From Myxococcales bacterium (lineage in GTDB: Bacteria > Myxococcota > Myxococcia > Myxococcales > UBA5297): a DNA stretch of 64,000 nt. Position numbers and translations under genes: made by a program. The notes below the pieces were generated by a model. The model was not told the DNA's origin. It saw only the letters and a program-made list of their open reading frames with translations, and made no database searches. The stretch spans positions 3,869 to 67,868 of the forward strand of contig JAVBMV010000005.1 in the NCBI GenBank assembly GCA_031552145.1, given 5' to 3'. Below, in pieces: positions 13,611-43,072 of this stretch (its first letter is position 1; each line of letters opens with the position of its first letter).

Positions 13611-13712
13611 CGTCAACGCAGGGCGGGCGAGGCGGTGCCTCTCTGGCCCCGACCCGAGCAAGCGAAGGCGAGATGTCGTAAGCTATCGGACCTATCCGCA
13701 CTGGAGGTCGAT

Positions 13713-16700
13713 ATGGCTTGCGTCAGGCTGCGCTCACTCTTCTTTGCCCTCGCCCTGGGGTTGGCGGCATGCGCCGACCCCAATCCGCCGGGCAACACTC
13801 CCGATGCTGGCGATATCGACTCGGGCGATGTTGGAGATATCGGCGCCGATGCCTGCGTGGCCAACTGCGAAGGCAAGCAGGGCGGCGAGAGCGACGGCTG
13901 CGGAGGGGAGTGTCCCTGCGTGCCAGAGAACGATTTCGAGTTCTGCGAGCGATTGGGGGCTACCTGCGGCACGCTGAAGGCGCCCGACACCTGTGAAGAG
14001 GAGCGAGAGGTCTCGTGCGGTGAATGTGATGCGCGGCAGAGATGTGACGAAGCGCATCGCTGTGTCTGTGCGCCCTATACGGACGATCAGCTCTGCGCGG
14101 CCGCGCTAAAAGAGTGTGGCGCCCTCGGTGAAGTGGATGACGGCTGCGGAAATGCCGTAGAGGTTCTCTCCTGCGGCACCTGTCCGAAGCACACGTTCTG
14201 CGGCCCCGATGGTGCCTGCGAGCCCTGCGTGCCAGAGAACGATCTCGAGTTCTGCGTTCGCCATGGCGTGGAGTGCGGGTCGTTAGAGACCCTAGACAAC
14301 TGCGAGTACGCGCGCAAAGTGGCGGAATGCGGCACCGAAACCGGGTGCGGCGCGATGATGCTCTGTACTCCGCACGGAAAGTGCCTAGGCGCCCACAGAC
14401 CGAAAAATGATGCCTGCGGCGATCCGGACGATGAGAACATCGAGCCCGAAGAGCTCCTTTTCGATGAGACGACGGGCTACGCCTACGCCTATGGCGCAAT
14501 GGATAAGGCCAACGCATACAAGAAGCCGACGGCGCCTGGCGAAAAAGAGGCGGAGAGCCTAGGCACCGTGATCTCATGCATCGAAGGGACCCGAAACAAA
14601 TCTCGAGACGTGGTCTATACCTTTTCGCTGGCCGAGCCGACGACCATCTCGGTAAGCCTGGCCACCGCGTGGGAGGCGGCCGCTCTGGAGCTGCGATCGG
14701 CCTGTGGCGTGGTGGCCGACAGCACCATTTCTTGCAAAGTGGACCTTTCGAAGGGCTCCATTGCGCTGCCGCCGCAGAACCTGGGGGCGGGCCAATATTG
14801 GCTGTGGGTCGCTTCGCCGGGCAGGCACCACACCGACCCCAATCCTGCCCCGGGCCTGTTTGCACTGACCGTGCTGGCGGTGCCGATAGCGGAAGTGGCG
14901 GAGAATGACAAATGCGACTCGTTGGAGCCCTTGCTTCTTGTCTCGGGGGTTATCCGCGTCAGCGCAGATTTGCGAAAGGCGACTGGACAGCTGGCGGGGG
15001 GGTGTGGGAGTGCGCAGATATTGCATCCGGAGGTGGTCTATTTGTTGGACCTTCCTCTGGCGGGCTCCCTCAAGGCCACGGCGAGGCCCAATGCGACGGA
15101 TGGAAATGGCGTTGAGCCCTATCTCTATCTGCGCCGGGCGTGCGAGAAGCTCTCGAGCGAGGTTCTCTGCACCCCTTACGCGGACGGCAGGGCCGAGTTG
15201 CACGCCCCGCGCCTCGCGGCGGGGGCCTGGTACCTGGTGGTCGATGCGACGACAGACGCCATGGGCCTGGTGGATCTCGAGGTAGAGCTCGCCGATCCAC
15301 TGCCAAGGCCCGAGGGCGACATTTGCTCGGATGAGCTCGTGCCGCTCACCTTCCAGCGAGGCGACCGGATCACCGTCAAGGGCGATCTCTTCGCGGCGGG
15401 CGATGACAGCGACACGCCTTGCCCAGGGACCGGCGCCAGCCCAGAGTTCGTCCATGTCTTCGAGCTCACCGAGCCCGCCTATGTCGGCATCGTCCTGCAG
15501 GGCGATGAGACGACCAAGGGTTATCTGCCGGCACTTCATACGCGGCCGAGCTGCGCGGCTATCCATGGCACCCACTGCGGGGACTCGGAAGCCTATGCCC
15601 GTAGAGCCGTGCTCAATGCTGGGCTGTTGGAAGCCCCTTTTAGCGAGGGGCGGCACTATATCTTCGTAGAGGGGCTAAACCAGAACGTTGGGAAATATGA
15701 GATGGTGATCACGAAGTATCCGGTCGAGCGCAACGATACCTGCGAAACGGCGGTCCCGCTCTCCAACTTCGACGAGGAGGACAAGCTGGTCGCTTACGGT
15801 TCGCTCAGGGAAAGCTTTGCGAGACAGATGCTCTCCTGTGCTCCCGTCGACATGCTCCCCGGACTGGCTGCTGTATACGAGATTGCTCCCCCCCGTGACG
15901 CGACGCTGCGAGGGAAGATCACGTCGAGCCCAGGTCAGACGCTCGCGCTCATCGCCGAGGTGCGAAGAGATTGCGATGATGTGACCACCGCGATCAGAGG
16001 GACCTGTACGCCTCCTGTGGATCTCATCTCTCCCGCCGAGTTCGTTGTTCGGCATGTCAGCTCGTCAAGCAAATATTACCTGTGGATCCGTTCCAGAGCC
16101 TTATATTCGGATGTCTTCAGCGAGGTGGTGGTGCCGGGCGACTTCACTATAGAGCTTCAGCTGTTCGATCCCGTGACGCCCTCCAACGACCTCTGCGAGG
16201 GAGCCTCCGAGCTGATCTTCGATAACGATGTGGCACGGGTGACGAAGACCGAGGATGGAGAGCCGCTCGACACGCGCTTTGCCTCGGATGACTACGCGGG
16301 CAGCTGTGGCACACCCACCCTGATTCAGAATGGTCCGGATCTGGTCTGGTACTTCGATGTGACGGCGCCGATCGCCATTCAGGTGAAGGTCTCGAAGACC
16401 GGCGCCAAAGCTGCAGGACCGCTCGCCTTCTCGTTGCGGCGAAGTTGCGCTGCCTCGACCCCGACAGACGAGGTGCTCTGCGCCTATTCGACGGGCGGCG
16501 ATTTTGTCTCGACGACCCACTCCATTCTCGACGACCCCGGGCGCTACTTCCTCGTCGTGGATGAGCTTGGCACAGAGGACGCTCCAGCGTTGGGGGGACA
16601 GTTCGAGTTGGAGGTGACCAGGCGGCAAACTCTTCAAGGCGACTCCTGTGCCATTGCAGCCGATCTGGGAGATGTCACGGGGCTCGAGAAACAGCTCTCG

Positions 16701-19700
16701 GGTGACACGCGGCTGGCGTATCGTGATATGCAAAACGACAGCAGCTGCCGAAATAGCGAGGCGGCGAAAGACCTGGTGTATGCCTTCACCCTGACCGAGG
16801 TGCAGACCGTTGAGCTGACCGTAACGCCGACGACTCCATCGTATAACCCGGTTGTATCGATACGTTCATCCTGCGGTGCCGCGGAGACGCTCGTGCCAGG
16901 CGCCTGTGCTCGCAACGAGACGATCCCCGGAGTGCGTCGGTTCCTCTTTGGTCGCATGGAGGCGGGAACCTACTATATTTGGATCTCAGGCTATTCTTTG
17001 GGCGGGGGCGTATTGGCGGATGGTGCCTTCGCGTTAGAACTCAAAGCGAGCTCGCCGCCTAGTGTTCCTCTCAACTCAGGATGTGGGCAACCCCAGTTGC
17101 TGGCGCTCAGTCATGTGACGGACGGTATCGGGAAGTACGCTACTGTCTCCGCCGACACTACCTACTCGCGGAATTTGGATGAAGGAGGGGGCCCCTGTCC
17201 AGGCGCGAGCGGGCCTGACCTAACCTTCAAGTTCACCATCGATTCCTTCCCGGAGGGTGAGAAGGGCTTGGTACTGGCAACCGTAATCCCTGCCGATGGC
17301 TCGTCGCTCATCCCAGCTGTTTCGATAAGGCGGCTGTCCGATTGTGACTCGGCCTTGGCGCAGGAGGCCTGTGGCTTCGCAAAACTAGTGAACCCTGTCG
17401 CCGCCTCCGCTAAGGTTGGCAATGGAGAGTATGTCGTGGTTGTCGATGGGGTGCAGGGCAGCGCGGGCGCCTTCACGCTCGACATCTTGGCGCGCCCCCC
17501 TCTGTGGGGCGACACCTGCGATCAGGCGGAGACGCTCGAGTTCGGAGCGCCCATCGATGGGGTGGCTACGGCGACGATGCTCATCGAAGACCTGGCCCAG
17601 GCTGGCGACGACGCGCAGACTCTCTTCCCTGCGACGATCTGCTCTATGGCGGGGCGCGATGTGGTCTATGTGCTTGACCTGCGCGCCGGCGGAAGAAAGG
17701 TGGAGATCACCGTCAAAGGCGCGGCTGGAAACAGTGTGTATCGCCCAGCGTTTTCAGTGCGGCAGGTCTGTGGCGATATCTTCTCGGAGATTGGGTGCAA
17801 GGGTCTGGGCGGTACGACCGAGAGCGCGACCTTCAACTGGCTGAGCCCCGGGCTCTACTATATTTGGGTTGATGCCTACACTGCGTCATCGGCGCGAGGT
17901 AGGGTCGAAGTGACCGTCAAGACGACAGATGTGGCGAATGCACCAACTAACTACTCTTGTGAGACGGCTCTAGATATCTCACAGGAGGCCAGGACGCACA
18001 CGCCTATCGAGGGCACGACCGAGGCTTCGACAAACAATATACGCGGCACCTGCGAAAATTCTGCGCTCACGCAGAACCTATCCGAGCTGGTCTACAAATA
18101 TACCGCAGAGAGCACGACGGGGCTGGAGATGCTGCTCTCTTCGGAAAATACCTATTCTCACGTCTTGGTGGTCCGTAGCGTCTGTGAGAGCGGGGCTGCC
18201 GCACATGAACTCGCCTGCATGAAGACGGCGGCCGCCAGTTTCTTGATGACGACGTGGTCCGCCAATGCCTACGTGCCGCGCATCGACGCGGGGCAGACGA
18301 TCTATATAATCATCGACACGACGATGTCGCTGGGGCAGGCCAGGCCCGGGCCATTCAGACTCGAGGTCCACGAGCGACCCGCGGCCGAGAATGATACGTG
18401 TGAGGCGGCGGAGGAGCTGATGTTCGAGGAAGATATTGCGACGGCCCAAGGCGACACGCGCTACGCGAGCAATACGACGCACGCCTATGCGAACAATACC
18501 ATGAGCGGGCCTATGACCTCGGCGGGCCTCTACGGTAGTACCAACTCCGGATTCTATTGTCCTGAGCTGTTCTATAAGTTCAGCATCGAGGCGGGGAAGG
18601 CCTATTCGGTGAAGGCTACGGTAGTTCCTGCGGACCCAGTCGATGGCCTGAAGACAGTTCTCTATGTGCGCCCATCGTGTGCGCCCGACTTCGTCTCGGT
18701 CAGCCCGTATGTAGTCCTTCCGCCTGTTGGCTATGGGTTGGCTCAGGTGGCTCACACGTCGGATACGTCGGCGGCCTTCTCGTTGCTGATGCCGCGGCTC
18801 GACGCGGGAACGTACTATGTCGTTGTGGACTCGTATGGCAGTGACGTGGACTGTCGTTCGGGGGCGTTCGAGCTTTCCGTCGAGCGAACCGAGATTCTGC
18901 CAGAAGACGTCCCGCCCAACGCTCTATGTGGCGAAGCGACCGCGACGCTGCTGGACTTTGCCGACGCTACGGTCGATGGGACCGCGCGGACGAAGGAGTG
19001 GCCTCTTGCCGATACACGCAGGGCAGGAGATTCGATGCAGGGTAGCTGTGGAATACTCCACGGGGGAGATCTTTTTTATAAGCTAAGCCTTGCCTCGGAG
19101 CGGCGTGTGACCGCGACGGTCACCCGGAGCCCGAACACCGCGGAGCAGGGGGGCTATACGCCCGCCCTCTATCTCAGAAAAAACTGTGCGCAGGGTTTCG
19201 AGAATGAGGTGGCCTGTTCGGTTGCCAGTGAGGGCGTTGGAGGCAAGTCGGGCATCGCGATGCTGGTCCAGCCGGTGCTCGGGCCTGGCACCTGGTACCT
19301 GGTTGTAGATGGCAATCAATACAGCGGCGGTACGTTCGTCTTGTCGGTAGCCTTGGATACGCCCGCGCCCGTGGCGCCGACCAACGACTCTTGCTTCTCC
19401 CCCATGCCGATCCTCGTGGATGTAGAGAGCGAGGTGATCACGGCGACGACCGGGGTTGCTGGGGGCGCGGCGCTGGCAAATAACGATGCCGTCGCTTCTT
19501 GCGTCGATCAGGCAGTGAGCAGCGCACCGGGGTACTCCGCGCAAGACCTTGTCTACTCGATAGCCATCGATCGCCCGCGCAGACTCACCGCGCAGATTCT
19601 CGAGAGCAACGGAATCAGGCCTGCGCTCTTCTTGCGGAAGGAATGCGGGCTCGGCGGTTTTTCGAACGAGGTGTTCTGTTCGCGCGCGGATGCCCCCGGT

Positions 19701-20279
19701 GGTGTCGTGGCGCCCATTAGTGCCGTTCTGCCCGAGGGGCTCTGGTATCTTTGGGTCGATGGATATGCGGCCACTGCGGGTACCTTTACGTTGGGAGTCG
19801 AACTCACGGAGATCGCCGCGCAATTGCCACCGGCGAATGACAACTGTCAGGGGGAAGTGCCGCCGCTTTCAGCCAATGTACCCGTGACTGGCGACACAAC
19901 TTTCGCCGAGGCCGACTATGGCTGGCGAAAGGCGATGCCCTGCGGATTTGGCGGGGGTGTCGTGTTGCGCGTGCCGCGCGGAAAAGACGTGGTCTATTCC
20001 TACACTCCGACGAAAGACGGCCTCTTTCTGCTCCACCTCACGCCACATGGCTCCACGCCCAATGATCGCCCAGAGGTTTGGGTGACGAAGACGCTCTGCG
20101 GCGAAGAGAGCGCCTGCGTGGCCATGGCGAGAACCTCGCCGGGAGGTGGAAAGTTGTCGCAGCTGCCCGTCTGGGGCGAGGCCGGAGTCACCTATTATTT
20201 GATCGTGGGCTCCGCGACCGGGGCAACGCCTCAATGGAGCGGAAAGTTCACGCTCGAGGTGCGCGTTACGGAGCCTTGA
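13713..20279 (+). CDS. Giant lipoprotein A (2,188 aa): 3 Cys-rich repeats + 13 PPC-like disulfide modules; function unknown
   Basis: GGAGG lies 6 nt upstream of ATG 13713. Signal peptide with lipobox MACVRLRSLFFALALGLAAC. It is a single uninterrupted ORF, and every ~140-175 aa it repeats ND/GDxC ... DxVYxF ... R..C ... YY/WYxxVD ... GxFxLxV. See findings. Confidence 0.85.
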   Translation: MACVRLRSLFFALALGLAACADPNPPGNTPDAGDIDSGDVGDIGADACVANCEGKQGGESDGCGGECPCVPENDFEFCERLGATCGTLKAPDTCEEEREVSCGECDARQRCDEAHRCVCAPYTDDQLCAAALKECGALGEVDDGCGNAVEVLSCGTCPKHTFCGPDGACEPCVPENDLEFCVRHGVECGSLETLDNCEYARKVAECGTETGCGAMMLCTPHGKCLGAHRPKNDACGDPDDENIEPEELLFDETTGYAYAYGAMDKANAYKKPTAPGEKEAESLGTVISCIEGTRNKSRDVVYTFSLAEPTTISVSLATAWEAAALELRSACGVVADSTISCKVDLSKGSIALPPQNLGAGQYWLWVASPGRHHTDPNPAPGLFALTVLAVPIAEVAENDKCDSLEPLLLVSGVIRVSADLRKATGQLAGGCGSAQILHPEVVYLLDLPLAGSLKATARPNATDGNGVEPYLYLRRACEKLSSEVLCTPYADGRAELHAPRLAAGAWYLVVDATTDAMGLVDLEVELADPLPRPEGDICSDELVPLTFQRGDRITVKGDLFAAGDDSDTPCPGTGASPEFVHVFELTEPAYVGIVLQGDETTKGYLPALHTRPSCAAIHGTHCGDSEAYARRAVLNAGLLEAPFSEGRHYIFVEGLNQNVGKYEMVITKYPVERNDTCETAVPLSNFDEEDKLVAYGSLRESFARQMLSCAPVDMLPGLAAVYEIAPPRDATLRGKITSSPGQTLALIAEVRRDCDDVTTAIRGTCTPPVDLISPAEFVVRHVSSSSKYYLWIRSRALYSDVFSEVVVPGDFTIELQLFDPVTPSNDLCEGASELIFDNDVARVTKTEDGEPLDTRFASDDYAGSCGTPTLIQNGPDLVWYFDVTAPIAIQVKVSKTGAKAAGPLAFSLRRSCAASTPTDEVLCAYSTGGDFVSTTHSILDDPGRYFLVVDELGTEDAPALGGQFELEVTRRQTLQGDSCAIAADLGDVTGLEKQLSGDTRLAYRDMQNDSSCRNSEAAKDLVYAFTLTEVQTVELTVTPTTPSYNPVVSIRSSCGAAETLVPGACARNETIPGVRRFLFGRMEAGTYYIWISGYSLGGGVLADGAFALELKASSPPSVPLNSGCGQPQLLALSHVTDGIGKYATVSADTTYSRNLDEGGGPCPGASGPDLTFKFTIDSFPEGEKGLVLATVIPADGSSLIPAVSIRRLSDCDSALAQEACGFAKLVNPVAASAKVGNGEYVVVVDGVQGSAGAFTLDILARPPLWGDTCDQAETLEFGAPIDGVATATMLIEDLAQAGDDAQTLFPATICSMAGRDVVYVLDLRAGGRKVEITVKGAAGNSVYRPAFSVRQVCGDIFSEIGCKGLGGTTESATFNWLSPGLYYIWVDAYTASSARGRVEVTVKTTDVANAPTNYSCETALDISQEARTHTPIEGTTEASTNNIRGTCENSALTQNLSELVYKYTAESTTGLEMLLSSENTYSHVLVVRSVCESGAAAHELACMKTAAASFLMTTWSANAYVPRIDAGQTIYIIIDTTMSLGQARPGPFRLEVHERPAAENDTCEAAEELMFEEDIATAQGDTRYASNTTHAYANNTMSGPMTSAGLYGSTNSGFYCPELFYKFSIEAGKAYSVKATVVPADPVDGLKTVLYVRPSCAPDFVSVSPYVVLPPVGYGLAQVAHTSDTSAAFSLLMPRLDAGTYYVVVDSYGSDVDCRSGAFELSVERTEILPEDVPPNALCGEATATLLDFADATVDGTARTKEWPLADTRRAGDSMQGSCGILHGGDLFYKLSLASERRVTATVTRSPNTAEQGGYTPALYLRKNCAQGFENEVACSVASEGVGGKSGIAMLVQPVLGPGTWYLVVDGNQYSGGTFVLSVALDTPAPVAPTNDSCFSPMPILVDVESEVITATTGVAGGAALANNDAVASCVDQAVSSAPGYSAQDLVYSIAIDRPRRLTAQILESNGIRPALFLRKECGLGGFSNEVFCSRADAPGGVVAPISAVLPEGLWYLWVDGYAATAGTFTLGVELTEIAAQLPPANDNCQGEVPPLSANVPVTGDTTFAEADYGWRKAMPCGFGGGVVLRVPRGKDVVYSYTPTKDGLFLLHLTPHGSTPNDRPEVWVTKTLCGEESACVAMARTSPGGGKLSQLPVWGEAGVTYYLIVGSATGATPQWSGKFTLEVRVTEP

Positions 20280-20371: not shown

Positions 20372-23300
20372 ATGAAATATGGCGTATTTTGTTGTCTTCT
20401 GTTGGTCCTTTCCCTGGGATTGGCGGCGTGCGGTGACCCCAATCCGCCGGGCAACATCGCCGATGTTGGCGGTACAGACTCGGGCGATGTTGGGGACGCC
20501 GGCCAAGATGCCTGCGTATCCAACTGTGAGGGCAAGCAGGGTGGCGAGAGCGACGGCTGCGGAGGGACGTGTTCCTGCGTCCCAGAGAGCGACAAGGCGT
20601 TCTGCGAGCGGCTTAGGGCTACCTGCGGCACGTTGAAGGCGCCCGACAACTGCGAAGAGGAGCGAGAGGCTTCGTGTGGCCGCTGCGATGAGCGCCAGAG
20701 ATGTGACGAGGTGGCGCACCGTTGCGTCTGCGAGCCCTATACGGAAAGGGAGCTCTGCGCGGCCGCGCTGATAGAGTGTGGGGCGCTCGGTGAGGTGGAT
20801 GACGGCTGCGGAAACACCGTGGAGGTCTTTTCTTGCGGCACCTGCCCGAAGCACACCTTCTGCGGCCCCGATGGCGCCTGTGCGCCCTGCGTGCCAGAGA
20901 GTGATCTCGAGTTCTGCGCTCGCCATGGCGTGGAGTGCGGAACGCTCTCTGAGCTCGACAATTGCGAGTATGAGCGAACCGTGACGGAGTGCCGGACAGG
21001 GAGCGCGTGCGGCGAGATGATGCTCTGTACGCCGCGCGGCAAGTGTCCCGCCGCCTATAGACCGAAGAACGATGCCTGCAGCGATCCGGTCGATGCGAAC
21101 ATTGGACCCGAAGAGCTCGTCTTCGATGAGACGACGGGCTACGCCTATGCCTATGGCGTCATGGACGAGGCGCTTGCCTACAAGATGCCGACCGAGCCGG
21201 GCGACAAGGATGCGGAGAGCCTCGGCACCCTGATTTCGTGCAATGAGGGAATTCGTAGAAGCTCCCGCGATGTGGTCTACACCTTCTCGCTCACCGAGCC
21301 GATGACCATCTCGGTGAGCCTGGCGACTGCGTGGGCGGCGGCCGCGCTGGAGCTGCGTTCGGTGTGTGGTGTGGCGCTCGACAGCGCCATCGCCTGCAAT
21401 TTGGACATGGATCACGGCAGCATCTCGCTGGCGCCGCAAAACCTGGGGGCGGGCCAGTATTGGCTCTGGGTCGCCACCCCCACGAACCGCCTCAATGAGC
21501 CCAATCTTGCCCTAGGGCTCTTCACGCTCTCCGTTCAGGCAGTGCCGATCGCGGAGGTGGCCGAAAACGACGAATGCGGTGTGGCGGAGCCGTTGGCCCT
21601 GGCCTCCGGACCGACCCTGTTCGGCGCCGACCTGCGCATGGCGACGGGGCAGCTGGTTGGAGGGTGCGCGGGTACGCAGGTGCTGCATCCCGAGTTGGTC
21701 TATTTGCTGGATTTGCAGCAAACACATTCGCTGAAGGCCACGGTCAGGGCCAACGCGGTCGATGGAAATGGCGTGGTGCCCTATCTCTATCTGCGCAGCT
21801 CCTGCGAGGAGGTAGCGAGTGAGCTCTTCTGCAACACGAACGTAGATGGCAGGGCGGAGCTGCACGTCCCGCGCCTGGGCGAGGGCCTCTGGTATCTGGT
21901 GGTCGACGCCATGACCGATGCCATCGGACTGGTGGACCTCGAGGTGGAGCTCGCCGAGCCGCTCCCAAGACCCGAGGGCGATCTCTGCTCGGAGGCGCTG
22001 GTGCCTCTCACCTTTGAGGAGGGCTCACGGATCACGGTCGAGGGCGACCTCTTCGCGGCAGGGGACGACAGCGAGACGCTCTGCCCGGGGAGCGGCGCTG
22101 GCCCAGAGATCGTCCACGCCTTCGAGCTCGCCGAGCCCGCCTATGTCGGCGTGGTGCTGCTGGGAGACGACAGCACCAAGGGCTATCTGCCCGCATTTCA
22201 TATCAGGCCGGATTGTACGGCCATTCAAGGGACTCTCTGCGGAGTGACCGAGTCCTATTACCGCCGCGCCGGTTTGAATGCTGGACTCATGCAGAGCCCG
22301 CTCGGCGCGGGGATCCATTACCTGGTCGTGGAGGGGCTGAATCAGAACGTCGGAAAATACAAGCTGGAGATCACGAAGTATCCCGTGGAGCGCCACGACC
22401 AATGCAGCGCGGCTATCCCGCTCACCGATTTTGGCGATAATGACACGCTGGTAGCCTATGGCTCGCTCCGGGAGAACGACGCCAGGTACCGGTTCTCCTG
22501 CGCCACGTGGGATATGGCTCCGGGGCTGGCTGCCGTCTACGAGATAAAGCCCCCGCGAGATGCGACGCTCAGAGGAAAGATCACGCCCAGCCCTGGGCAG
22601 GCGCTCGCCCTCATCGCCGAGGTGCGCAGAGAATGCGACGAGATGAACTCCGCCATTCGAGGGACATGCAAGTCCCCATACAGCTTTATCTCTCCTGCCG
22701 AGTTCATGGTGCAACGCGTCAATCCGCTTGACAAATATTACCTGTGGGTACGTTCCAGGGCTTACTCTCTGGAAGGTGTCGGCGATGTCGTGACGCCCGG
22801 TGACTTCACCATCGAGCTCGAGCTGATCGATCCGGTGGCGCCCTCCAACGATCTCTGCGTCGGGGCCTCTGAGCTCGTCTTCGACCACGGCGTAGCGCTC
22901 GTGACCACGACCGAGGAGGGCGAGAAGTTAGACACGCGCTTTGCTTCTGACGACTACTCGGGAACCTGTGGCACCGCGACGATGACTCAGAGTGGTCCAG
23001 ATTTGGTTTGGTATTTCGATGTGACCGAGCCCATCGCCATCGATATCAAGCTCACGAGGGCCGACGATAGCGCGATGGGGCACCTCGCATTCTCGTTGCG
23101 GCGCAGCTGCGCCGCCCCCACGCCCACCGATGAAGTGCTCTGCGCCTATTCGAAAAACGGCGGGGGCGCGGAGGTCTCTGCGACCCACTCCTATCTCGCC
23201 GAGGAGGGGCGGTATTATCTCGTCGTGGATGAGCTCGGCTCGGCGAGCGCTCCGGCGTTGGGAGGCCTGATCGCGATTGAGGTGACCAAGCGCTCACCGC

Positions 23301-26300
23301 TCCCCGGCGACTCCTGTGCCAATAAGGGCGACCTAGGAGATATCACCGGCCTCGAAAAGCGGATCTCGGGTGACACCCGGCTGGCCCATCGCGATGCACT
23401 CTATGACAGCAGTTGCGTCTCCTCGGACGCGGCCAGGGATATGGTCTATGCCTTCACGCTAACCTCTGCTCAGACCGTCGAGCTGACGGTGACACCGACG
23501 AATCCCACCTTCAATCCCGTCGTCTCGGTTCACTCCGCTTGCGAGAGCCACGGAGCCCGCCTGCCGGGCGGCTGTGCCCGCCATGAGACGGTGCCGGGGG
23601 TGCGCCAGCTCTTCTTCGGACGCCTGGAGGGAGGGACTTATTATGTGTGGGTCACGGGCTATGCGAAGGGCTCGGGCGTCCTGGCAGATGGGGCGTTCGA
23701 GCTCAAGGTGAAGGCGAGCGAGCCGCCGACTATCCCCGCGAACTCGGGCTGTGACCATCCGCAGTCGTTGACGCTGCAGGACGAGGTGGCCGGCACCGGC
23801 AAGTATGGCTCGCTCTCCGGCGACACCACCTACTCGCGAAATCTGGATTCGGGGGGAGGCTCCTGCGCGGGCGCGAGCGGGCCAGAGCTTACCTACAGGT
23901 TCATCGTCGATTCTTTCCCGTCGAGCGCCGAAGGGATGCTCATCGCGACCGTCACCCCCGCGCCCGGCTCTACGCTCATCCCCTCCGTTTCGGTTCGGTC
24001 GCTCGCCAACTGCGGGGCGCCAGCGGCGCAGAAGGGCTGCAGCGCCTCAAAGCTGGTCAATCCGACCGCTGCTTCCGTCAAGGCTGGCAATGGCGAATAT
24101 GTCGTGGTCGTCGATGGCGCCGAGGGCAGCGCTGGCGCTTTCACGCTGGAGGTGCTGGTGCGGCCGCCCCTCCCGGGCGACACCTGCGACCAAGTGGAGC
24201 GGCTCGAGTTCACGGCGCCGGTGGATGGGGTGGCCGTTGCGACCGCGACGATTGAGAACTTGGCCCAAGCGGGCGATGACGCGACCACGCTCTCCCCCTC
24301 GACGATCTGCACCATGGCGGGACGCGATATTGTCTATTTGCTGGATCTGAGCAGCGGCGGCAGAAAGGTAGATGTCACGGTCAGGGCTGGCGCCGAAAAT
24401 GCCGTTTATCGCCCTGCGTTCTCATTGAGGAAGTCCTGCGACGACATCTTCTCTGAGATTGGGTGCAAGAGTCTCAACACGGCGGGTGGAAGCGTGAGCG
24501 CGACTTTCAACTGGCTGAGTCCGGGGCGCTACTATCTGTGGGTCGACGCCTTTTCTGCCAATGCCTCCCAGGGGGCGGTCGAGGTAATTGTCACGACCAC
24601 CGCCCTGCAGGGTGCGCCCACGAACTATTCATGCCAGACGGCGCTCGATATCTCGGAGGCGGTGCGGGCACATACGCCGATCGAGGGCAACACCGCGGTC
24701 GCGGCGAACAACTTCCGCGGCACCTGTGAGATCGCTGCATTGACGCAGAACCTCTCCGAGCTGGTCTACAAATACACGGCGCAGACCGCGAAGGGACTGG
24801 AGATCGTGCTTACTTCCAACAGGTCGTATGCCCATGTCCTGGTCGTGCGAAACGTCTGCGAGAGCGAGGCAGCTGTCAACGAGTTGGCCTGTATCAAGAC
24901 GGCGAGCACGAAACATACGAGTTTGGAGAATCCATACTGGGCTGCCCGGTACTATGTACCGCGCGTCGATGCCGAACAGACGGTTTATATTATCGTCGAT
25001 ACAACGCAAATGAGCAACGATGCGAAGGTTGGGCCATTCAAGCTCGAGATCGAAGAGCGCCCCGTCGCGGCACATGATACATGCGAGGAGGCGGCGCCGC
25101 TGATATTCGAGGGGAACGTGGCGACGGCACAGGGCAACACCAGCTATGCGAGCAACACGACCCACGCCTATGCGAACGGCTCCATGAATGGCCCCATGAC
25201 CCTGGCGGGCACCTATGGTGTCGCCAGCTCCGGTTTCTACGGCCCAGAGCTCTTTTATAAGTTCACCATCGATCAGGGGAAGGCCTTCTCGGTAAATGTG
25301 ACCGTGCGCCCCACGGATACGGGTGATGGCTTGAAGACAGTCCTTTACGTGCGCCCTTCGTGTGCGTCCGATTTCATCTCGGCGAACCCCTCCACTGTGC
25401 TTCCTCCCATTGGTTATGGGTTGACACAGGCGAGCAGCACAACCGACAGCACAGCGGCCTTCTCGTTGCTGGTGCCGCGGCTCGATGCCGGCACCTATTA
25501 TGTGGTCGTCGACTCGTACGGAGGCGAAACGGACTTCGGGCCCGGTGCGTTCGAGCTCACTGTGGAGCGGACCGAGATTCTCCCCGGCTCCGTTCCGGCC
25601 AATGCGCTCTGCGGCGAGTCGACCGCGATGCTGCTCGACTTTACGGGCGCCACAGTCGAGGGAAGCGCGCAGACAAAATCCTGGCCCCAGGCAGACACGC
25701 GCCTCGCGGGGGATTCGATGCAGGGGAGCTGCGGGGTGCTCCATGGCGGCGACCTCTTTTATAAGCTAGACCTCAGCTCGGAGAGGCGAGTGACCGCGAC
25801 GGTGACCCGAGATCCGCTCACCTCGGTGCAGAACTCCTTCACGCCCGCAATCTACCTCAGGAGAAACTGTGAGCCGGGCCTCGAGAATGAGCTGGCCTGT
25901 TCGATGGCCCGCGAAGGAACCGGCGACAAGACAGGTATCGCGACGCTCGTTCATCCCAAGCTGGGGCCCGGTCTCTGGTACCTGGTGGTCGACGGCAATC
26001 AGTACAGCAGCGGCACCTTTGTCCTGACGGTGACTCTGGATGAACAAGCGCCCCAGGCGCCGACCAATGACTCGTGCTTCGCTCCTACGCCGCTGCTCGT
26101 GAACGTAGAGAGTGAGCAGGTGACCGCGACGACCGCGGTGGGGGGCGCGCCGCTGGCGAACAACGACGCCCTCGCTTCGTGCAATTACGAGGCGGCCAGC
26201 AACGCTCCTGGCTATACGGCCCAGGATCTCGTCTATTCGATCGCCCTCGACCGACCGCGCAGGCTCACCGCTCAGATTGTCGAGAGCATCGGAATTAGGC

Positions 26301-26959
26301 CCGCGATCTTCTTGCGCAAGGAGTGCGCGGTCGGCGGCTTCGCGAACGAGTTGTTCTGTTCGCGCGCGACCGCGGCTGGGGGCGTCGTCGCGCCCGTCAG
26401 CGCGGTATTGCCAGAGGGGCTCTGGTATCTGTGGGTCGACGGATATGCCGCCACCGCGGGCTCGTTCACGCTGGGGGTCGAGCTCTCCGAGATCGGGTCG
26501 CAATTGCCGCCGCTGAATGACAACTGCCAGGGGACGGTGCCGCAGCTTACGGCCAAGGTGCCCGTCGTGGGTGATACGACGAATGCCGTGGCGGACTATG
26601 GCTGGCGAAAGGCGATGCGGTGCGGGTTCCCCGTCGGCGTCTCGGCGCGCGTGCCGCGCGGGAAGGATGTCGTCTATTCCTACACCCCCACGCTGGATGG
26701 AGACTTCGCGCTCGTCTTGACGCCCTGGACCACCGCGTCCAGCGATCGGCCAGAGATATGGGTGACGAAGGGGCTCTGCGGCGAAGAGAGCGCTTGTGTG
26801 GCGATCGCGAGGAGCGCCCCAACCGGAGGAAAAGTGGCGCGACTGCCGGTGTGGGGAGAGGCGGGCGTCACCTATTATGTGATCGTGGGCTCCTCGACCG
26901 CTGCGACGCCTCCATGGAGCGGACAGTTCACGCTCGAGGTTCGCCCCACGGCGCCCTGA
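20372..26959 (+). CDS. Giant lipoprotein B (2,195 aa), collinear paralog of lipoprotein A
   Basis: GGAGG lies upstream of ATG 20372. Signal peptide with lipobox MKYGVFCCLLLVLSLGLAAC. It aligns by eye with protein A from the lipobox to the final residues (…SGQFTLEVRPTAP versus …SGKFTLEVRVTEP), with the same module order. Confidence 0.85.
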   Translation: MKYGVFCCLLLVLSLGLAACGDPNPPGNIADVGGTDSGDVGDAGQDACVSNCEGKQGGESDGCGGTCSCVPESDKAFCERLRATCGTLKAPDNCEEEREASCGRCDERQRCDEVAHRCVCEPYTERELCAAALIECGALGEVDDGCGNTVEVFSCGTCPKHTFCGPDGACAPCVPESDLEFCARHGVECGTLSELDNCEYERTVTECRTGSACGEMMLCTPRGKCPAAYRPKNDACSDPVDANIGPEELVFDETTGYAYAYGVMDEALAYKMPTEPGDKDAESLGTLISCNEGIRRSSRDVVYTFSLTEPMTISVSLATAWAAAALELRSVCGVALDSAIACNLDMDHGSISLAPQNLGAGQYWLWVATPTNRLNEPNLALGLFTLSVQAVPIAEVAENDECGVAEPLALASGPTLFGADLRMATGQLVGGCAGTQVLHPELVYLLDLQQTHSLKATVRANAVDGNGVVPYLYLRSSCEEVASELFCNTNVDGRAELHVPRLGEGLWYLVVDAMTDAIGLVDLEVELAEPLPRPEGDLCSEALVPLTFEEGSRITVEGDLFAAGDDSETLCPGSGAGPEIVHAFELAEPAYVGVVLLGDDSTKGYLPAFHIRPDCTAIQGTLCGVTESYYRRAGLNAGLMQSPLGAGIHYLVVEGLNQNVGKYKLEITKYPVERHDQCSAAIPLTDFGDNDTLVAYGSLRENDARYRFSCATWDMAPGLAAVYEIKPPRDATLRGKITPSPGQALALIAEVRRECDEMNSAIRGTCKSPYSFISPAEFMVQRVNPLDKYYLWVRSRAYSLEGVGDVVTPGDFTIELELIDPVAPSNDLCVGASELVFDHGVALVTTTEEGEKLDTRFASDDYSGTCGTATMTQSGPDLVWYFDVTEPIAIDIKLTRADDSAMGHLAFSLRRSCAAPTPTDEVLCAYSKNGGGAEVSATHSYLAEEGRYYLVVDELGSASAPALGGLIAIEVTKRSPLPGDSCANKGDLGDITGLEKRISGDTRLAHRDALYDSSCVSSDAARDMVYAFTLTSAQTVELTVTPTNPTFNPVVSVHSACESHGARLPGGCARHETVPGVRQLFFGRLEGGTYYVWVTGYAKGSGVLADGAFELKVKASEPPTIPANSGCDHPQSLTLQDEVAGTGKYGSLSGDTTYSRNLDSGGGSCAGASGPELTYRFIVDSFPSSAEGMLIATVTPAPGSTLIPSVSVRSLANCGAPAAQKGCSASKLVNPTAASVKAGNGEYVVVVDGAEGSAGAFTLEVLVRPPLPGDTCDQVERLEFTAPVDGVAVATATIENLAQAGDDATTLSPSTICTMAGRDIVYLLDLSSGGRKVDVTVRAGAENAVYRPAFSLRKSCDDIFSEIGCKSLNTAGGSVSATFNWLSPGRYYLWVDAFSANASQGAVEVIVTTTALQGAPTNYSCQTALDISEAVRAHTPIEGNTAVAANNFRGTCEIAALTQNLSELVYKYTAQTAKGLEIVLTSNRSYAHVLVVRNVCESEAAVNELACIKTASTKHTSLENPYWAARYYVPRVDAEQTVYIIVDTTQMSNDAKVGPFKLEIEERPVAAHDTCEEAAPLIFEGNVATAQGNTSYASNTTHAYANGSMNGPMTLAGTYGVASSGFYGPELFYKFTIDQGKAFSVNVTVRPTDTGDGLKTVLYVRPSCASDFISANPSTVLPPIGYGLTQASSTTDSTAAFSLLVPRLDAGTYYVVVDSYGGETDFGPGAFELTVERTEILPGSVPANALCGESTAMLLDFTGATVEGSAQTKSWPQADTRLAGDSMQGSCGVLHGGDLFYKLDLSSERRVTATVTRDPLTSVQNSFTPAIYLRRNCEPGLENELACSMAREGTGDKTGIATLVHPKLGPGLWYLVVDGNQYSSGTFVLTVTLDEQAPQAPTNDSCFAPTPLLVNVESEQVTATTAVGGAPLANNDALASCNYEAASNAPGYTAQDLVYSIALDRPRRLTAQIVESIGIRPAIFLRKECAVGGFANELFCSRATAAGGVVAPVSAVLPEGLWYLWVDGYAATAGSFTLGVELSEIGSQLPPLNDNCQGTVPQLTAKVPVVGDTTNAVADYGWRKAMRCGFPVGVSARVPRGKDVVYSYTPTLDGDFALVLTPWTTASSDRPEIWVTKGLCGEESACVAIARSAPTGGKVARLPVWGEAGVTYYVIVGSSTAATPPWSGQFTLEVRPTAP

Positions 26960-36644: not shown

Positions 36645-37121
36645 CTATAGGCCTCTAACGAAACGCCAGACGTTCTCTTCACGGACGAAGGCGAACTCGG
36701 CGGTGTCGGCTTGGCGCGACCAGGTGGGGATCTCCGAGACGCCCGGCATCTGATAGTTCATCTCGTAGAAGTACTGTGCCTTCGCGGTCTTGCCGGTGAT
36801 CTGGATCGCCTTTAGCCTGATGTCGGCGCGCACGCGGGAGGCCTGCCTGGCCCACTCGGTCAGCTTCTGCTGCAGGTCGGTGTAGTCGGCGTCGTCCGCT
36901 GGCTCGGGGGTGCCCGAGTTCTCGAAGTAGCTGGGGCTGACCAGACGCATGATCGACTCGACGTTCCGTTCCTCCAACCCCTTCTTGTAGGCGGCGACGA
37001 CATCAATGATCTCCCTATTCTCGTCGGAGTCCTCGATCTCCGTTCCCGGGATGAGCGAGGGTGAGCAGGCCGCCGCGGCGAAGAGTAGGGTGAAGAGTGC
37101 GAGTAAGGGGCGCTTGCGCAT
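36645..37121 (-). CDS. Hypothetical lipoprotein (possibly NTF2/SnoaL-like fold)
   Basis: Lipobox MRKRPLLALFTLLFAAAAC. The small alpha+beta composition ends ...AEFAFVREENVWRFVRGL. The fold assignment is a guess. Confidence 0.6.
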   Translation of the reverse strand: MRKRPLLALFTLLFAAAACSPSLIPGTEIEDSDENREIIDVVAAYKKGLEERNVESIMRLVSPSYFENSGTPEPADDADYTDLQQKLTEWARQASRVRADIRLKAIQITGKTAKAQYFYEMNYQMPGVSEIPTWSRQADTAEFAFVREENVWRFVRGL

Positions 37122-37294
37122 GTGGGCTCCTGCGGGATGGATGGGCGAGATGTCTCGCGGCGTGGGCGCAATGTCAACCTTCCCATGCTCGGGCTATTCC
37201 GGCTAGGGGCCCGGTTGCGCGGGCCGCGGTGCGGCGTTAGTCGAGGCCTTCTGCCCCTGCACCACGCATAGAGGGCGCTATTGAGGAGCATGCC

Positions 37295-37699
37295 ATGCCA
37301 AGCGAAGCGCTGCACGAGCCACTCGATCGGATCAGCCAAGCCACTGCCGACAACCACCGGGCGATCCAGTCGCTGCGGGAGGAGCTCGAGGCCGTCGACT
37401 GGTATCAGCAGAGGATCGATGTGACGCCCGATCCGGAGCTGAGGGAGATCCTGGAGCACAACAGGGATGAGGAGAAGGAGCACGCCGCGATGCTGGTCGA
37501 ATGGCTGCGCCGGCGCGACAAAGCGTTCGACCAGGCCTTGCGCTCCTATCTGAATACCGAGGGCTCGCTGGTGGAGTTGGAGAGGCGCGTCGAGGGAAAG
37601 GCTCTCGAGGGAAAGACTCTGGAGGGAGAGGGCGAGGCAGCTCATGCGGGACCGGAGGCGCCGCGCTTCTCCATCGGCGGGTTGAGGGGCGCCGGCTGA
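37295..37699 (+). CDS. Encapsulated ferritin-like cargo protein (EncFtn family) with C-terminal encapsulin targeting-peptide-like tail
   Basis: HEPLDRISQATADNHRAIQSLREELEAVDWYQQRIDVTPDPELREILEHNRDEEKEHAAMLVEWLRRRD matches, from memory, the EncFtn core (ELEAVDWY, HNRDEEKEHAAM with ExxH). It is followed by a flexible G/E/A linker and the terminal RFSIGGLRGAG. Confidence 0.75.
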   Translation: MPSEALHEPLDRISQATADNHRAIQSLREELEAVDWYQQRIDVTPDPELREILEHNRDEEKEHAAMLVEWLRRRDKAFDQALRSYLNTEGSLVELERRVEGKALEGKTLEGEGEAAHAGPEAPRFSIGGLRGAG

Positions 37700-37705
37700 G
37701 GCGCC

Positions 37706-37915
37706 TCAGCACTTGGCGACGGCGAGGCGGAAGCTCAGCGGGGTGCTGTGCCACTCGACGCGGTGGAGCGTGAAGTGGTTCGCGCAGTAGTGGGAGCCGT
37801 GGCTGGTGCAGCAGGCGGTCGCGGTCGCCTCACAGCCCAGCGCCTCGCACCGCTTCTCGAGGCGCCACTTGACGTACTCCGCGACGGTCATCTCTTTGAG
37901 CGCTCCATCTTCCAT
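37706..37915 (-). CDS. Small Cys/His-rich hypothetical protein (69 aa)
   Basis: MEDGALKEMTVAEYVKWRLEKRCEALGCEATATACCTSHGSHYCANHFTLHRVEWHSTPLSFRLAVAKC. Third-position GC is strongly biased, as in neighbouring genes. It is convergent with the EncFtn gene across a 6-nt gap. Confidence 0.5.
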   Translation of the reverse strand: MEDGALKEMTVAEYVKWRLEKRCEALGCEATATACCTSHGSHYCANHFTLHRVEWHSTPLSFRLAVAKC

Positions 37916-38077: not shown

Positions 38078-39121
38078 ATGTTTGACGTGAAGGCAATTGG
38101 TGTCACCTCCGCGAAGTCGCCCCTCGAGCCGATGCGCATCTCGCGCAGGGAGGTCGGCGAGCAAGACATCCTGATCGACATCGCCTATTGCGGGATCTGC
38201 CACTCCGACCTCCACCAGGTGCGCGACGAGTGGGGGGGCTCGCTCTTCCCGATGGTGCCGGGGCACGAGATCGCCGGGCGGGTCTCCAAGGTGGGTAAGG
38301 GTGTGACGCGCTTCAAGGTCGGGGATAACGCCGGTGTGGGCTGCATGGTCGACTCGTGCCGCACCTGTCGCCCCTGCGAGCGGGGGCTGGAGCAGTTCTG
38401 CCGTGCTGGCGCCGCCATGACCTACAACGGCACGGAGATGGATCGCGCCACGCCCACGCAGGGAGGCTATTCCACGCAGATCGTGGTGAACGAGCGCTTC
38501 GCGCTGCGTATCGGTGCCGGGGCGAACTTGGCCGGCACCGCGCCCCTGCTCTGTGCTGGGATCACCACTTGGTCGCCGCTGCGCCACTGGAAGGTCGGCG
38601 CGGGGAGCAAGGTGGGCGTGGTGGGGCTGGGAGGGTTGGGCCACATGGCCGTGAAGCTGGCTGCGTCGATGGGCGCGGAGGTGACGCTGCTCTCGACCTC
38701 GCGCGCCAAGGAAGCGGATGCCAAGCGGCTGGGCGCCGCCCATTTCGTGCTGACGACCGAGCGCGCGGCGATGCGCCCTCTGAGCGACCACTTCGATCTG
38801 CTCATCGACACCATCTCGGCGCCGCACGATTACAACACCTACCTGGAGCTGCTCGACGTCGACGGGGTGATGGTGCTCCTGGGCGTTCCGCCGGCACCGA
38901 CGCCCGTGCACGCCTTCTCGCTCATCACGGGGCGCAAGACGCTGGCCGGCTCGCTGATTGGCGGAATCGCCGAGACGCAGGAGATGCTCGACTACTGTGC
39001 CGAGAAGGGGATCGTAGCCGACGTCGAGGTGATCCCCTCATCCGCCTGCAACGAGGCCTACGAGCGGATGCTGAAGGGTGACGTGCGGTACCGATTCGCG
39101 ATCGACGCCAAGACGCTCTAG
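38078..39121 (+). CDS. NAD(P)-dependent zinc alcohol dehydrogenase (YahK/cinnamyl-ADH-like)
   Basis: GAAGGAG RBS upstream of ATG 38078. Motifs GICHSDLH and GHEIAGRV, the structural-Zn segment CRTCRPCERGLEQFC, and the Rossmann motif GLGGLGHMAV. Confidence 0.9.
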   Translation: MFDVKAIGVTSAKSPLEPMRISRREVGEQDILIDIAYCGICHSDLHQVRDEWGGSLFPMVPGHEIAGRVSKVGKGVTRFKVGDNAGVGCMVDSCRTCRPCERGLEQFCRAGAAMTYNGTEMDRATPTQGGYSTQIVVNERFALRIGAGANLAGTAPLLCAGITTWSPLRHWKVGAGSKVGVVGLGGLGHMAVKLAASMGAEVTLLSTSRAKEADAKRLGAAHFVLTTERAAMRPLSDHFDLLIDTISAPHDYNTYLELLDVDGVMVLLGVPPAPTPVHAFSLITGRKTLAGSLIGGIAETQEMLDYCAEKGIVADVEVIPSSACNEAYERMLKGDVRYRFAIDAKTL

Positions 39122-42086: not shown

Positions 42087-42199
42087 GCGCCCCCTTGACG
42101 TGGAGACGCTGCTGCTGTTGGCTCATAGTTCCAACCTGACTTGAACCCCTTTCTCCTCGTTCCCAGGTGCGGGCGGCGATGGAGCTTCCGGAGGCGCAC

Positions 42200-43072
42200 A
42201 TGATCTACCTTCTCGCCATTCTGACCGTCATCGCGATGGGCGTGGCCATCGCCATTGGTCTGCAGCTGGGAGGCGCGCGCGACGCCGCCGCCAAGGCGCG
42301 CGAAGAGGCTCAAGGGACGAAGACGCGCCTCCAGGCGGTGGAGGCCGAGTCGCGCAGGCAAGGCGAGGTTGCCGAGGCGAAGCGCCGCGAAATCGATGAG
42401 CTCAAAGAGCAGCTGCGCGACGCGAAGCGCCGTCGGCACGAGGAGCGCGAATCCGAGAAGTTCCAGCGCGACGCCCAGCGTATGCGCGAAGAGATCGAGC
42501 ACGAGATGGAGAAGCGGCTTGCGCGCGCGCGCGAGGAGACCGAGGAGGCGCGCGCGGTGCTGCGCAAGCAGACCGCGGAGATGGACGCGCTGCGCTCTCG
42601 TCGCGCGACGCCAGCGCCCTTCCAGGCGCCGAACCCCGCCGAGCCGCAGGAGGTGCGGCGGCGCGAGGCGAAGCCCGAAGAGGTCGCGCGACTCGAAGCT
42701 GCCGAGAAGGCGCTCGCCGAGAGCCGCGAGAAGTACAGGGAACTGGATGCCGAGCTGAAGCGCATGCGCGGCCGCGCCGAGACCGACAGGCGCGTCTTCC
42801 TGGTTCAGAAGGGCGAGATCGATCTGAGCAAGGACAAGTTCCGGGCGCTCGAGGCGCGTCACAACCAGCTGACGCGCGAGCGCGATGAACTGCGCCGCTC
42901 GCTCTACGAGCTGGAGAAGAGCATGAAGGGGCTCCTGCCTACCGCTCCCGGGGGCGAGGCCGAAACTTCGACCGCGGCGCCCGAGGAGACTTCGGCGCCG
43001 AAGCCAGAGATTGCCGAGGCGCCTTCGGCGGCCGAGCCGCGCCCCGAGGGGAGCGCTCCGGTCAGGGAGTAG
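42200..43072 (+). CDS. Single-pass membrane coiled-coil protein (R/E/K/A-rich)
   Basis: GGAGG lies 6 nt upstream of ATG 42200. TM helix MIYLLAILTVIAMGVAIAIGLQL. About 230 aa of charged heptad-like sequence follow, then a P/E/A-rich tail. Confidence 0.65.
   Translation: MIYLLAILTVIAMGVAIAIGLQLGGARDAAAKAREEAQGTKTRLQAVEAESRRQGEVAEAKRREIDELKEQLRDAKRRRHEERESEKFQRDAQRMREEIEHEMEKRLARAREETEEARAVLRKQTAEMDALRSRRATPAPFQAPNPAEPQEVRRREAKPEEVARLEAAEKALAESREKYRELDAELKRMRGRAETDRRVFLVQKGEIDLSKDKFRALEARHNQLTRERDELRRSLYELEKSMKGLLPTAPGGEAETSTAAPEETSAPKPEIAEAPSAAEPRPEGSAPVRE

Follow-up and report, generated by a model that had tools for sequence, protein, structure and literature searches.

Why does a gene that looks like the cargo of an encapsulin stand in a stretch of genome where no encapsulin shell gene accompanies it? 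The window analyzed here, which covers 64 kb of a contig of 422,613 bp, contains such a gene. The first-pass annotation had described a 134-aa ORF with the motifs of an encapsulated ferritin (EncFtn) and the terminal residues PRFSIGGLRGAG, and had proposed that its shell is either encoded elsewhere or lost. The ORF, its motifs and its terminus were matched exactly at positions 37295..37699 of the plus strand (ATG start, 134 codons plus stop). A Shine-Dalgarno sequence, GAGGAG, could be read off the sequence 6 nt 5′ of the ATG (37283..37288, +), and a scan around the gene for promoter consensus sequences returned none. The GC3 of the gene, 0.83, resembles that of its neighbors in a window with a mean GC content of 65.8%.

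Profile searches bore out the assignment to the EncFtn family. The protein matched PF22277 (EncFtn-like) with 130.3 bits (E = 2.3e-38, cutoff 27) and TIGR04535 ('encapsulin-associated ferritin-like protein') with 134 bits (cutoff 125), and its closest solved structures are the EncFtn proteins of R. rubrum (PDB ID: 5DA5, E = 1e-31) and H. ochraceum (PDB ID: 7OE2, E = 4e-30). The Pfam envelope delimits an EncFtn-like two-helix core domain at residues 6 to 89 (37310..37561, +). This core was recovered in an AlphaFold (AF2) model built on 20 homologs, with helices at residues 15 to 43 and 47 to 74 and pLDDT values of 94 to 98 for residues 20 to 70. Foldseek returned 5da5, 5n5f and 3k6c as the best matches for the model (TMt 0.87–0.92; rmsd 1.6–1.8 Å for the R. 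rubrum and H. ochraceum structures), the core superposing on 5da5 with a target-normalized TM score of 0.88, an rmsd of 1.6 Å and 61% identity.

The residues expected to handle iron are in place. E30, E60 and H63 correspond to R. rubrum E32, E62 and H65, of which E62 and H65 are described as ferroxidase residues (PMC11202242), and they occupy columns that are invariant across the 20 homologs, as do the entry-site residues E29, E32, W36 and Y37. These positions fall in two stretches: EELEAVDWY (residues 29–37; 37379..37405, +), which carries the entry-site and ferroxidase-center glutamates together with the Trp and Tyr and is identical in R. rubrum EncFtn when aligned to the PDB entry, and HNRDEEKEHAAM (residues 55–66; 37457..37492, +), which holds the ExxH ferroxidase-center motif with E60 and H63 and is invariant in 20/20 homologs. 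Given the 61% identity to R. rubrum EncFtn, we infer that the protein forms decamers and has ferroxidase activity. Like its R. rubrum and H. ochraceum counterparts, the two-helix subunit would assemble into a decameric ring whose dimer interfaces would form di-iron ferroxidase centers from E30, E60 and H63; such a ring would oxidize Fe(II) and by itself would be unable to store the product. The protein also departs from the family at three near-invariant columns (M28R, A43V and F87N), and its nearest EncFtn homolog is only ∼60% identical. The proteins of the window were singletons in a collection of 15 billion proteins and were otherwise seen only in sequencing run SRR23967707.

A shell gene was sought throughout the window. 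Among about 45 Pfam-scanned genes, covering essentially the whole 64 kb, none matched PF04454 or a capsid family. When the six-frame translation of the 64 kb was searched by tblastn and HMM, the queries being M. xanthus EncA (sequence identical to 4PT2), two T=1 shells and a shell profile of 35 sequences, the best shell E values were just 0.4 to 1. The earlier statement that the 64 kb contain no shell ORF is upheld by these searches, and a family-1 shell is absent from the 37 kb upstream and the 26 kb downstream of the EncFtn gene. Only two ORFs of shell size had no obvious family: the one at 42167–43069 proved to be coiled-coil-like, and the one in the gap at 51.7 to 52.7 kb is QueG on the minus strand. 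The Pfam scans and the unassigned ORFs of the window likewise offered no alternative shell-like gene.

The immediate surroundings of the gene leave no space for one. All three flanking genes named in the first-pass annotation were located: a 158-aa lipoprotein gene at 36645–37121 on the minus strand, divergent from EncFtn; a 69-aa Cys/His-rich ORF at 37706–37915, also on the minus strand and convergent with EncFtn, the two stops lying 6 nt apart; and a Zn-dependent alcohol dehydrogenase (ADH) gene at 38078–39121 on the plus strand, which forms the downstream flank. With a divergent lipoprotein gene on one side and a convergent gene so close on the other, a coupled shell gene would not fit; the EncFtn gene is monocistronic, which precludes translational coupling to a shell. 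A perfect 16-nt palindrome, GCTGAGGCGCCTCAGC (37695..37710), takes in both the EncFtn stop codon and that of the convergent gene and is possibly a hairpin shared by both; since a consensus scan detected no canonical intrinsic terminator near the EncFtn gene, a terminator role for it is conjecture. An independent Logan assembly (2237 bp, 100% identical) contains the same succession of EncFtn, convergent small gene and ADH, so a shell gene was not lost here by misassembly.

The neighbors themselves were also considered. A functional link between them and EncFtn was rejected, as the 69-aa Cys/His protein, the lipoprotein and a TPR protein of the window do not recur beside EncFtn in the other EncFtn loci compared. 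The 69-aa protein has only three small relatives among 1.84 billion representative proteins, with which it shares an invariant array, C-x4-C-x7-C-x2-H-x2-H-x-C-x2-H-x3-H-x4-H; it is probably a member of a tiny, uncharacterized zinc-binding family. Further upstream, two tandem giant paralogs on the plus strand (13635–20279 and 20372–26959; 2214 and 2195 aa, with 70% full-length identity) have lipoprotein-type N termini (LGLAAC) and 3.7% Cys, with GBD_T9SS_assoc and PPC as their sole recognizable domains, and their GC content of 0.60 to 0.63 is below that of their surroundings. The named matches of the ADH all belong to Anaeromyxobacter or Anaeromyxobacteraceae (Myxococcota, Myxococcia), at about 70 to 73% identity, and this one gene, together with a gene content that gives a broadly myxobacterial impression, suggests that the DNA comes from a thinly sampled Myxococcota lineage related to Anaeromyxobacter. 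In the Anaeromyxobacteraceae ADH loci the gene order is SecDF-ADH-RecJ, which is unrelated to that of the window, and EncFtn is absent there.

The arrangement that would be expected of such a gene was taken from EncFtn loci of 80 named genomes (L004–L083), each with flanks of up to 10 kb, in which shells were detected with a profile built for the purpose. Shell-linked EncFtn genes make up 33 of the 80 loci, and encode tailed proteins of 120 to 158 aa that all end in h-x-(I/V/L)-G-(S/G/D)-L-(K/R)-x. In all 33, the shell gene starts between −13 and +32 bp of the EncFtn stop, most commonly with a 4-bp overlap, which agrees with the expectation, voiced in the first-pass annotation, of a shell gene immediately downstream. 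No shell gene lies within 10 kb in the remaining 47 loci, and about 43 of the proteins that these encode have 94 to 115 aa and neither linker nor tail. Such proteins, mostly from Pseudomonadota, often terminate in a His-rich stub and make up one clade of a neighbor-joining tree. These short tail-less proteins have been termed 's-FLP' and the tailed ones 'FLP-TP' (PMC11202242).

In the same tree, the core of the window protein does not group with the s-FLPs; its long branch emerges at the base of a shell-linked group, and by sequence, fold, tail and phylogeny the protein is an FLP-TP. We regard it as extremely unlikely that we have misread a non-encapsulated s-FLP of the NE0167 kind, or a protein of the EncB/EncC family. 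The core is indeed 58 to 61% identical to NE0167 (PDB ID: 3k6c) too, but the s-FLPs are short and tail-less and keep to their own clade, whereas the window protein has 134 aa and a tail. Matches to the EncB/EncC side are weak: EncB_fam (NF058679) scored 78.9 bits, below its cutoff of 90, NF058678 reached 26 bits against a cutoff of 210, and M. xanthus EncC and EncB in the PDB gave E values of 4e-7 and 3e-4, respectively.

The protein also differs from the s-FLPs in its C terminus. The model is disordered (pLDDT <50) from residue 107 to the end. Residues 96 to 124 (37580..37666, +) constitute a flexible linker rich in G, E, A and K, of low pLDDT, unalignable and variable in length across homologs, which contains the small tandem repeat EGKALEGKTLEGEGE within residues 100–114. 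It is followed by the putative targeting peptide FSIGGLRG (residues 125–132; 37667..37690, +) and then by AG and the stop. The tail had been called targeting-peptide-like in the first-pass annotation, and a PSSM built from the 33 shell-linked tails gave it 15.4 bits; those tails themselves score 15.9 to 28.4 bits, save one that was mis-called, which puts the window tail just below the bottom edge of their range, and all 47 shell-less proteins score ≤ −0.1 bits. G128 and L130 are near-invariant in the homolog alignment, and the IGGL(K/R)G variant recurs in three shell-linked loci (L009, L047 and L061). The tail is more than a coincidence: EncFtn alone among the 565 six-frame ORFs of ≥60 aa in the window carries the strict targeting-peptide motif in its last 30 residues; no further targeting-peptide-like C terminus was found among these ORFs.

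The peptide shared by M. xanthus EncB, EncC and EncD, LTVGSLR, offers a guide to how such a tail would bind: its Leu, Val and Leu make hydrophobic contacts with the shell and its Arg forms salt bridges (PMC11126975). The F, I, L and R of the window tail map onto these L/V/L/R contacts, so that all four are kept in kind. A first-position Phe is atypical, being absent from all 33 T=1-linked tails, and binding to a family-1 shell is predicted from sequence. One could therefore suppose that a family-1 shell is not the target of the tail, which would instead bind another HK97-type shell or a different partner, or would simply form the end of the linker and have no binding role. The match to the family-1 consensus at 5/8 positions and to the published contact pattern speaks against this; moreover, family-2 systems use N-terminal domains and not such peptides (PMC8346489), and the window contains no alternative shell-like gene. 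We consider this explanation very unlikely.

Loss of the shell has to be taken more seriously. According to this explanation a family-1 shell was lost, or the gene was transferred alone; the protein would then act as a free decameric ferroxidase, like an s-FLP, with the tail as an undecayed remnant. That the fold functions where no shell gene is adjacent is evident from the 47 of 80 genomes that have an EncFtn-like gene and no shell within ±10 kb. Four of these genes, from Acidimicrobiales MAGs (L015, L025, L039 and L075, with EncFtn at about 10001–10400 in each), are long, nested within shell-linked clades and without a shell within 10 kb, which indicates that such a transition does happen. 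Two of the four have tails without the basic residue (LHIGRLEE and LGIGHLEP), a third is a 199-aa extended ORF with no tail-like motif, and only L025 keeps an intact tail (LGIGDLR); the four may capture stages in the decay of targeting peptides that follows loss or relocation of the shell. The window protein, too, sits on a long branch with near-invariant columns substituted, is distant from its closest homolog, stands in a neighborhood without synteny to Anaeromyxobacteraceae and has a tail score just under the shell-linked range. Its tail, however, retains the four contact positions and the Gly, unlike those of most of the comparable orphans, and the protein falls outside the clade of the free s-FLPs. 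A shell-free EncFtn oxidizes iron but yields an insoluble precipitate (PMC11202242), and a family-1 FLP system occurs in a member of the genus that is nearest by the ADH matches. On balance, loss of the shell appears rather unlikely.

We therefore favor, with moderate confidence, the explanation that the window EncFtn is a distal cargo of a family-1 shell encoded elsewhere, and we infer both its encapsulation and the presence of such a shell elsewhere in the genome. The evidence leans this way because all four contacts are intact, while most of the Acidimicrobiales orphan tails are damaged, and because Anaeromyxobacter sp. PSR-1 was found to have a family-1 FLP system in a 2021 census (PMC8346489 supplement). 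The two-way proposal of the first-pass annotation, a shell elsewhere or a shell lost, accordingly stands, with the intact tail and the Anaeromyxobacter system tipping it toward the former. Counting against a distal cargo are the lack of a shell gene in the 64 kb, the marginal tail score, the Phe in first position, the long branch and the M28R, A43V and F87N substitutions; the long branch and these substitutions could reflect relaxed constraint.

The gene product is a classical EncFtn of the FLP-TP class. In the mechanism that we propose, its disordered linker of about 30 residues would present FSIGGLRG at the C terminus, and as the shell assembles this peptide would dock in the pocket on the luminal side of a family-1 encapsulin shell protein. 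EncFtn would in this manner enter, as 'secondary' (distal) cargo, a family-1 shell whose gene lies in another part of the same Myxococcota genome, and the same shell may carry its own operon-encoded ferritin-like cargo (compare M. xanthus EncA with EncB, EncC and EncD).

Some hint of the type of shell comes from two myxobacterial EncA-type operons, in L088 (9600–12277) and L090 (165–2784). Their EncB tails, TFTVGSLKR and AWTVGPLKP, have the shape aromatic-(S/T)-(V/I)-G-x-L-(K/R), like the tail in the window, and this aromatic start, recalling the window Phe, hints, in a sample of two sequences, at a cognate shell of the myxobacterial EncA type. In both operons the order EncB, EncA and sigma-54 activator (response regulator) is conserved. 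A search with EncA gave 900 relatives, and among the matches listed two EncA-type shells (P0350 and P0355) had the provenance pattern of the window's proteins, singletons with sources ncbi plus lgn; both were rejected as the cognate shell, as they derive from runs SRR10580905 and SRR28674928 and not from SRR23967707.

Two further scenarios would be of greater interest, and we think it unlikely that either holds. In one, the genome is shell-less and a fully intact tail is nevertheless maintained, which would imply a shell-independent role for it such as anchoring the ferroxidase to some other partner or to a surface. In the other, a classical, distally encoded EncFtn is co-loaded into an EncA-type T=3 shell beside ferritins of the EncB/EncC type; the result would be a so far undescribed iron compartment with mixed cargo.

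Distal cargo of the Flp type is already documented, particularly in Myxococcota, and the window gene adds one more of a known type, so that it is of modest interest unless the genome turns out to be shell-less. If the shell does lie elsewhere, classical EncFtn would join the distal cargo known in Myxococcota, and the locus would be a further example of encapsulin systems spread over a genome, whose cargo operon-based censuses miss. More useful than the locus itself may be the simple rule that emerges for sorting EncFtn-like proteins: a linker, a tail and a shell gene about 4 bp downstream mark the encapsulated ones, and a short, tail-less sequence in a clade of its own marks the free ones. The handful of exceptions with decaying tails could be used to study what becomes of targeting peptides after loss of the shell.

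Among known systems, the EncFtn proteins of R. rubrum (Rru_A0973, 5DA5; 61% identity) and H. ochraceum (5N5F/7OE2; 53% identity), which are T=1 family-1 FLP-TP cargo, are closest to the window protein. Both share its predicted two-helix fold, have identical ferroxidase and entry-site residues and, like it, carry a disordered linker and a C-terminal targeting peptide. They differ in that their genes lie directly upstream of the shell gene, whereas in the window a convergent gene comes next and there is no shell, and in that the window tail begins with Phe and not with Leu, Val or Ala. The s-FLP NE0167 (3K6C) resembles the window EncFtn in its core fold, its metal ligands and the lack of an adjacent shell gene; the s-FLPs depart from it in their length of 94 to 115 aa, their missing linker and tail, their frequently His-rich end and their separate clade.

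In the organization of the gene, the nearest parallels are distal cargo proteins. Giessen & Silver used 'secondary cargo' for proteins that have a targeting peptide and are encoded outside the core operon, and listed 76 by core consensus, 27 of them of the Flp type (bioRxiv 10.1101/085266). That category was defined within genomes with a known shell, whereas for the window EncFtn a shell in the genome is presumed; the two are alike in their terminal targeting peptide and in a gene placed outside any core operon. M. xanthus, which belongs to the same phylum going by the ADH neighbor, provides the example cited in the first-pass annotation for cargo encoded away from encA, and the locus tags lie far apart (EncD, MXAN_2410; EncA, MXAN_3556; PMC11126975). 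The window protein differs from these cargo proteins in family, being a classical EncFtn (TIGR04535) and not a member of the EncB/EncC family. It shares with EncD (and EncC) a stand-alone gene and a C terminus of the form h-(S/T)-(V/I)-G-x-L-R.
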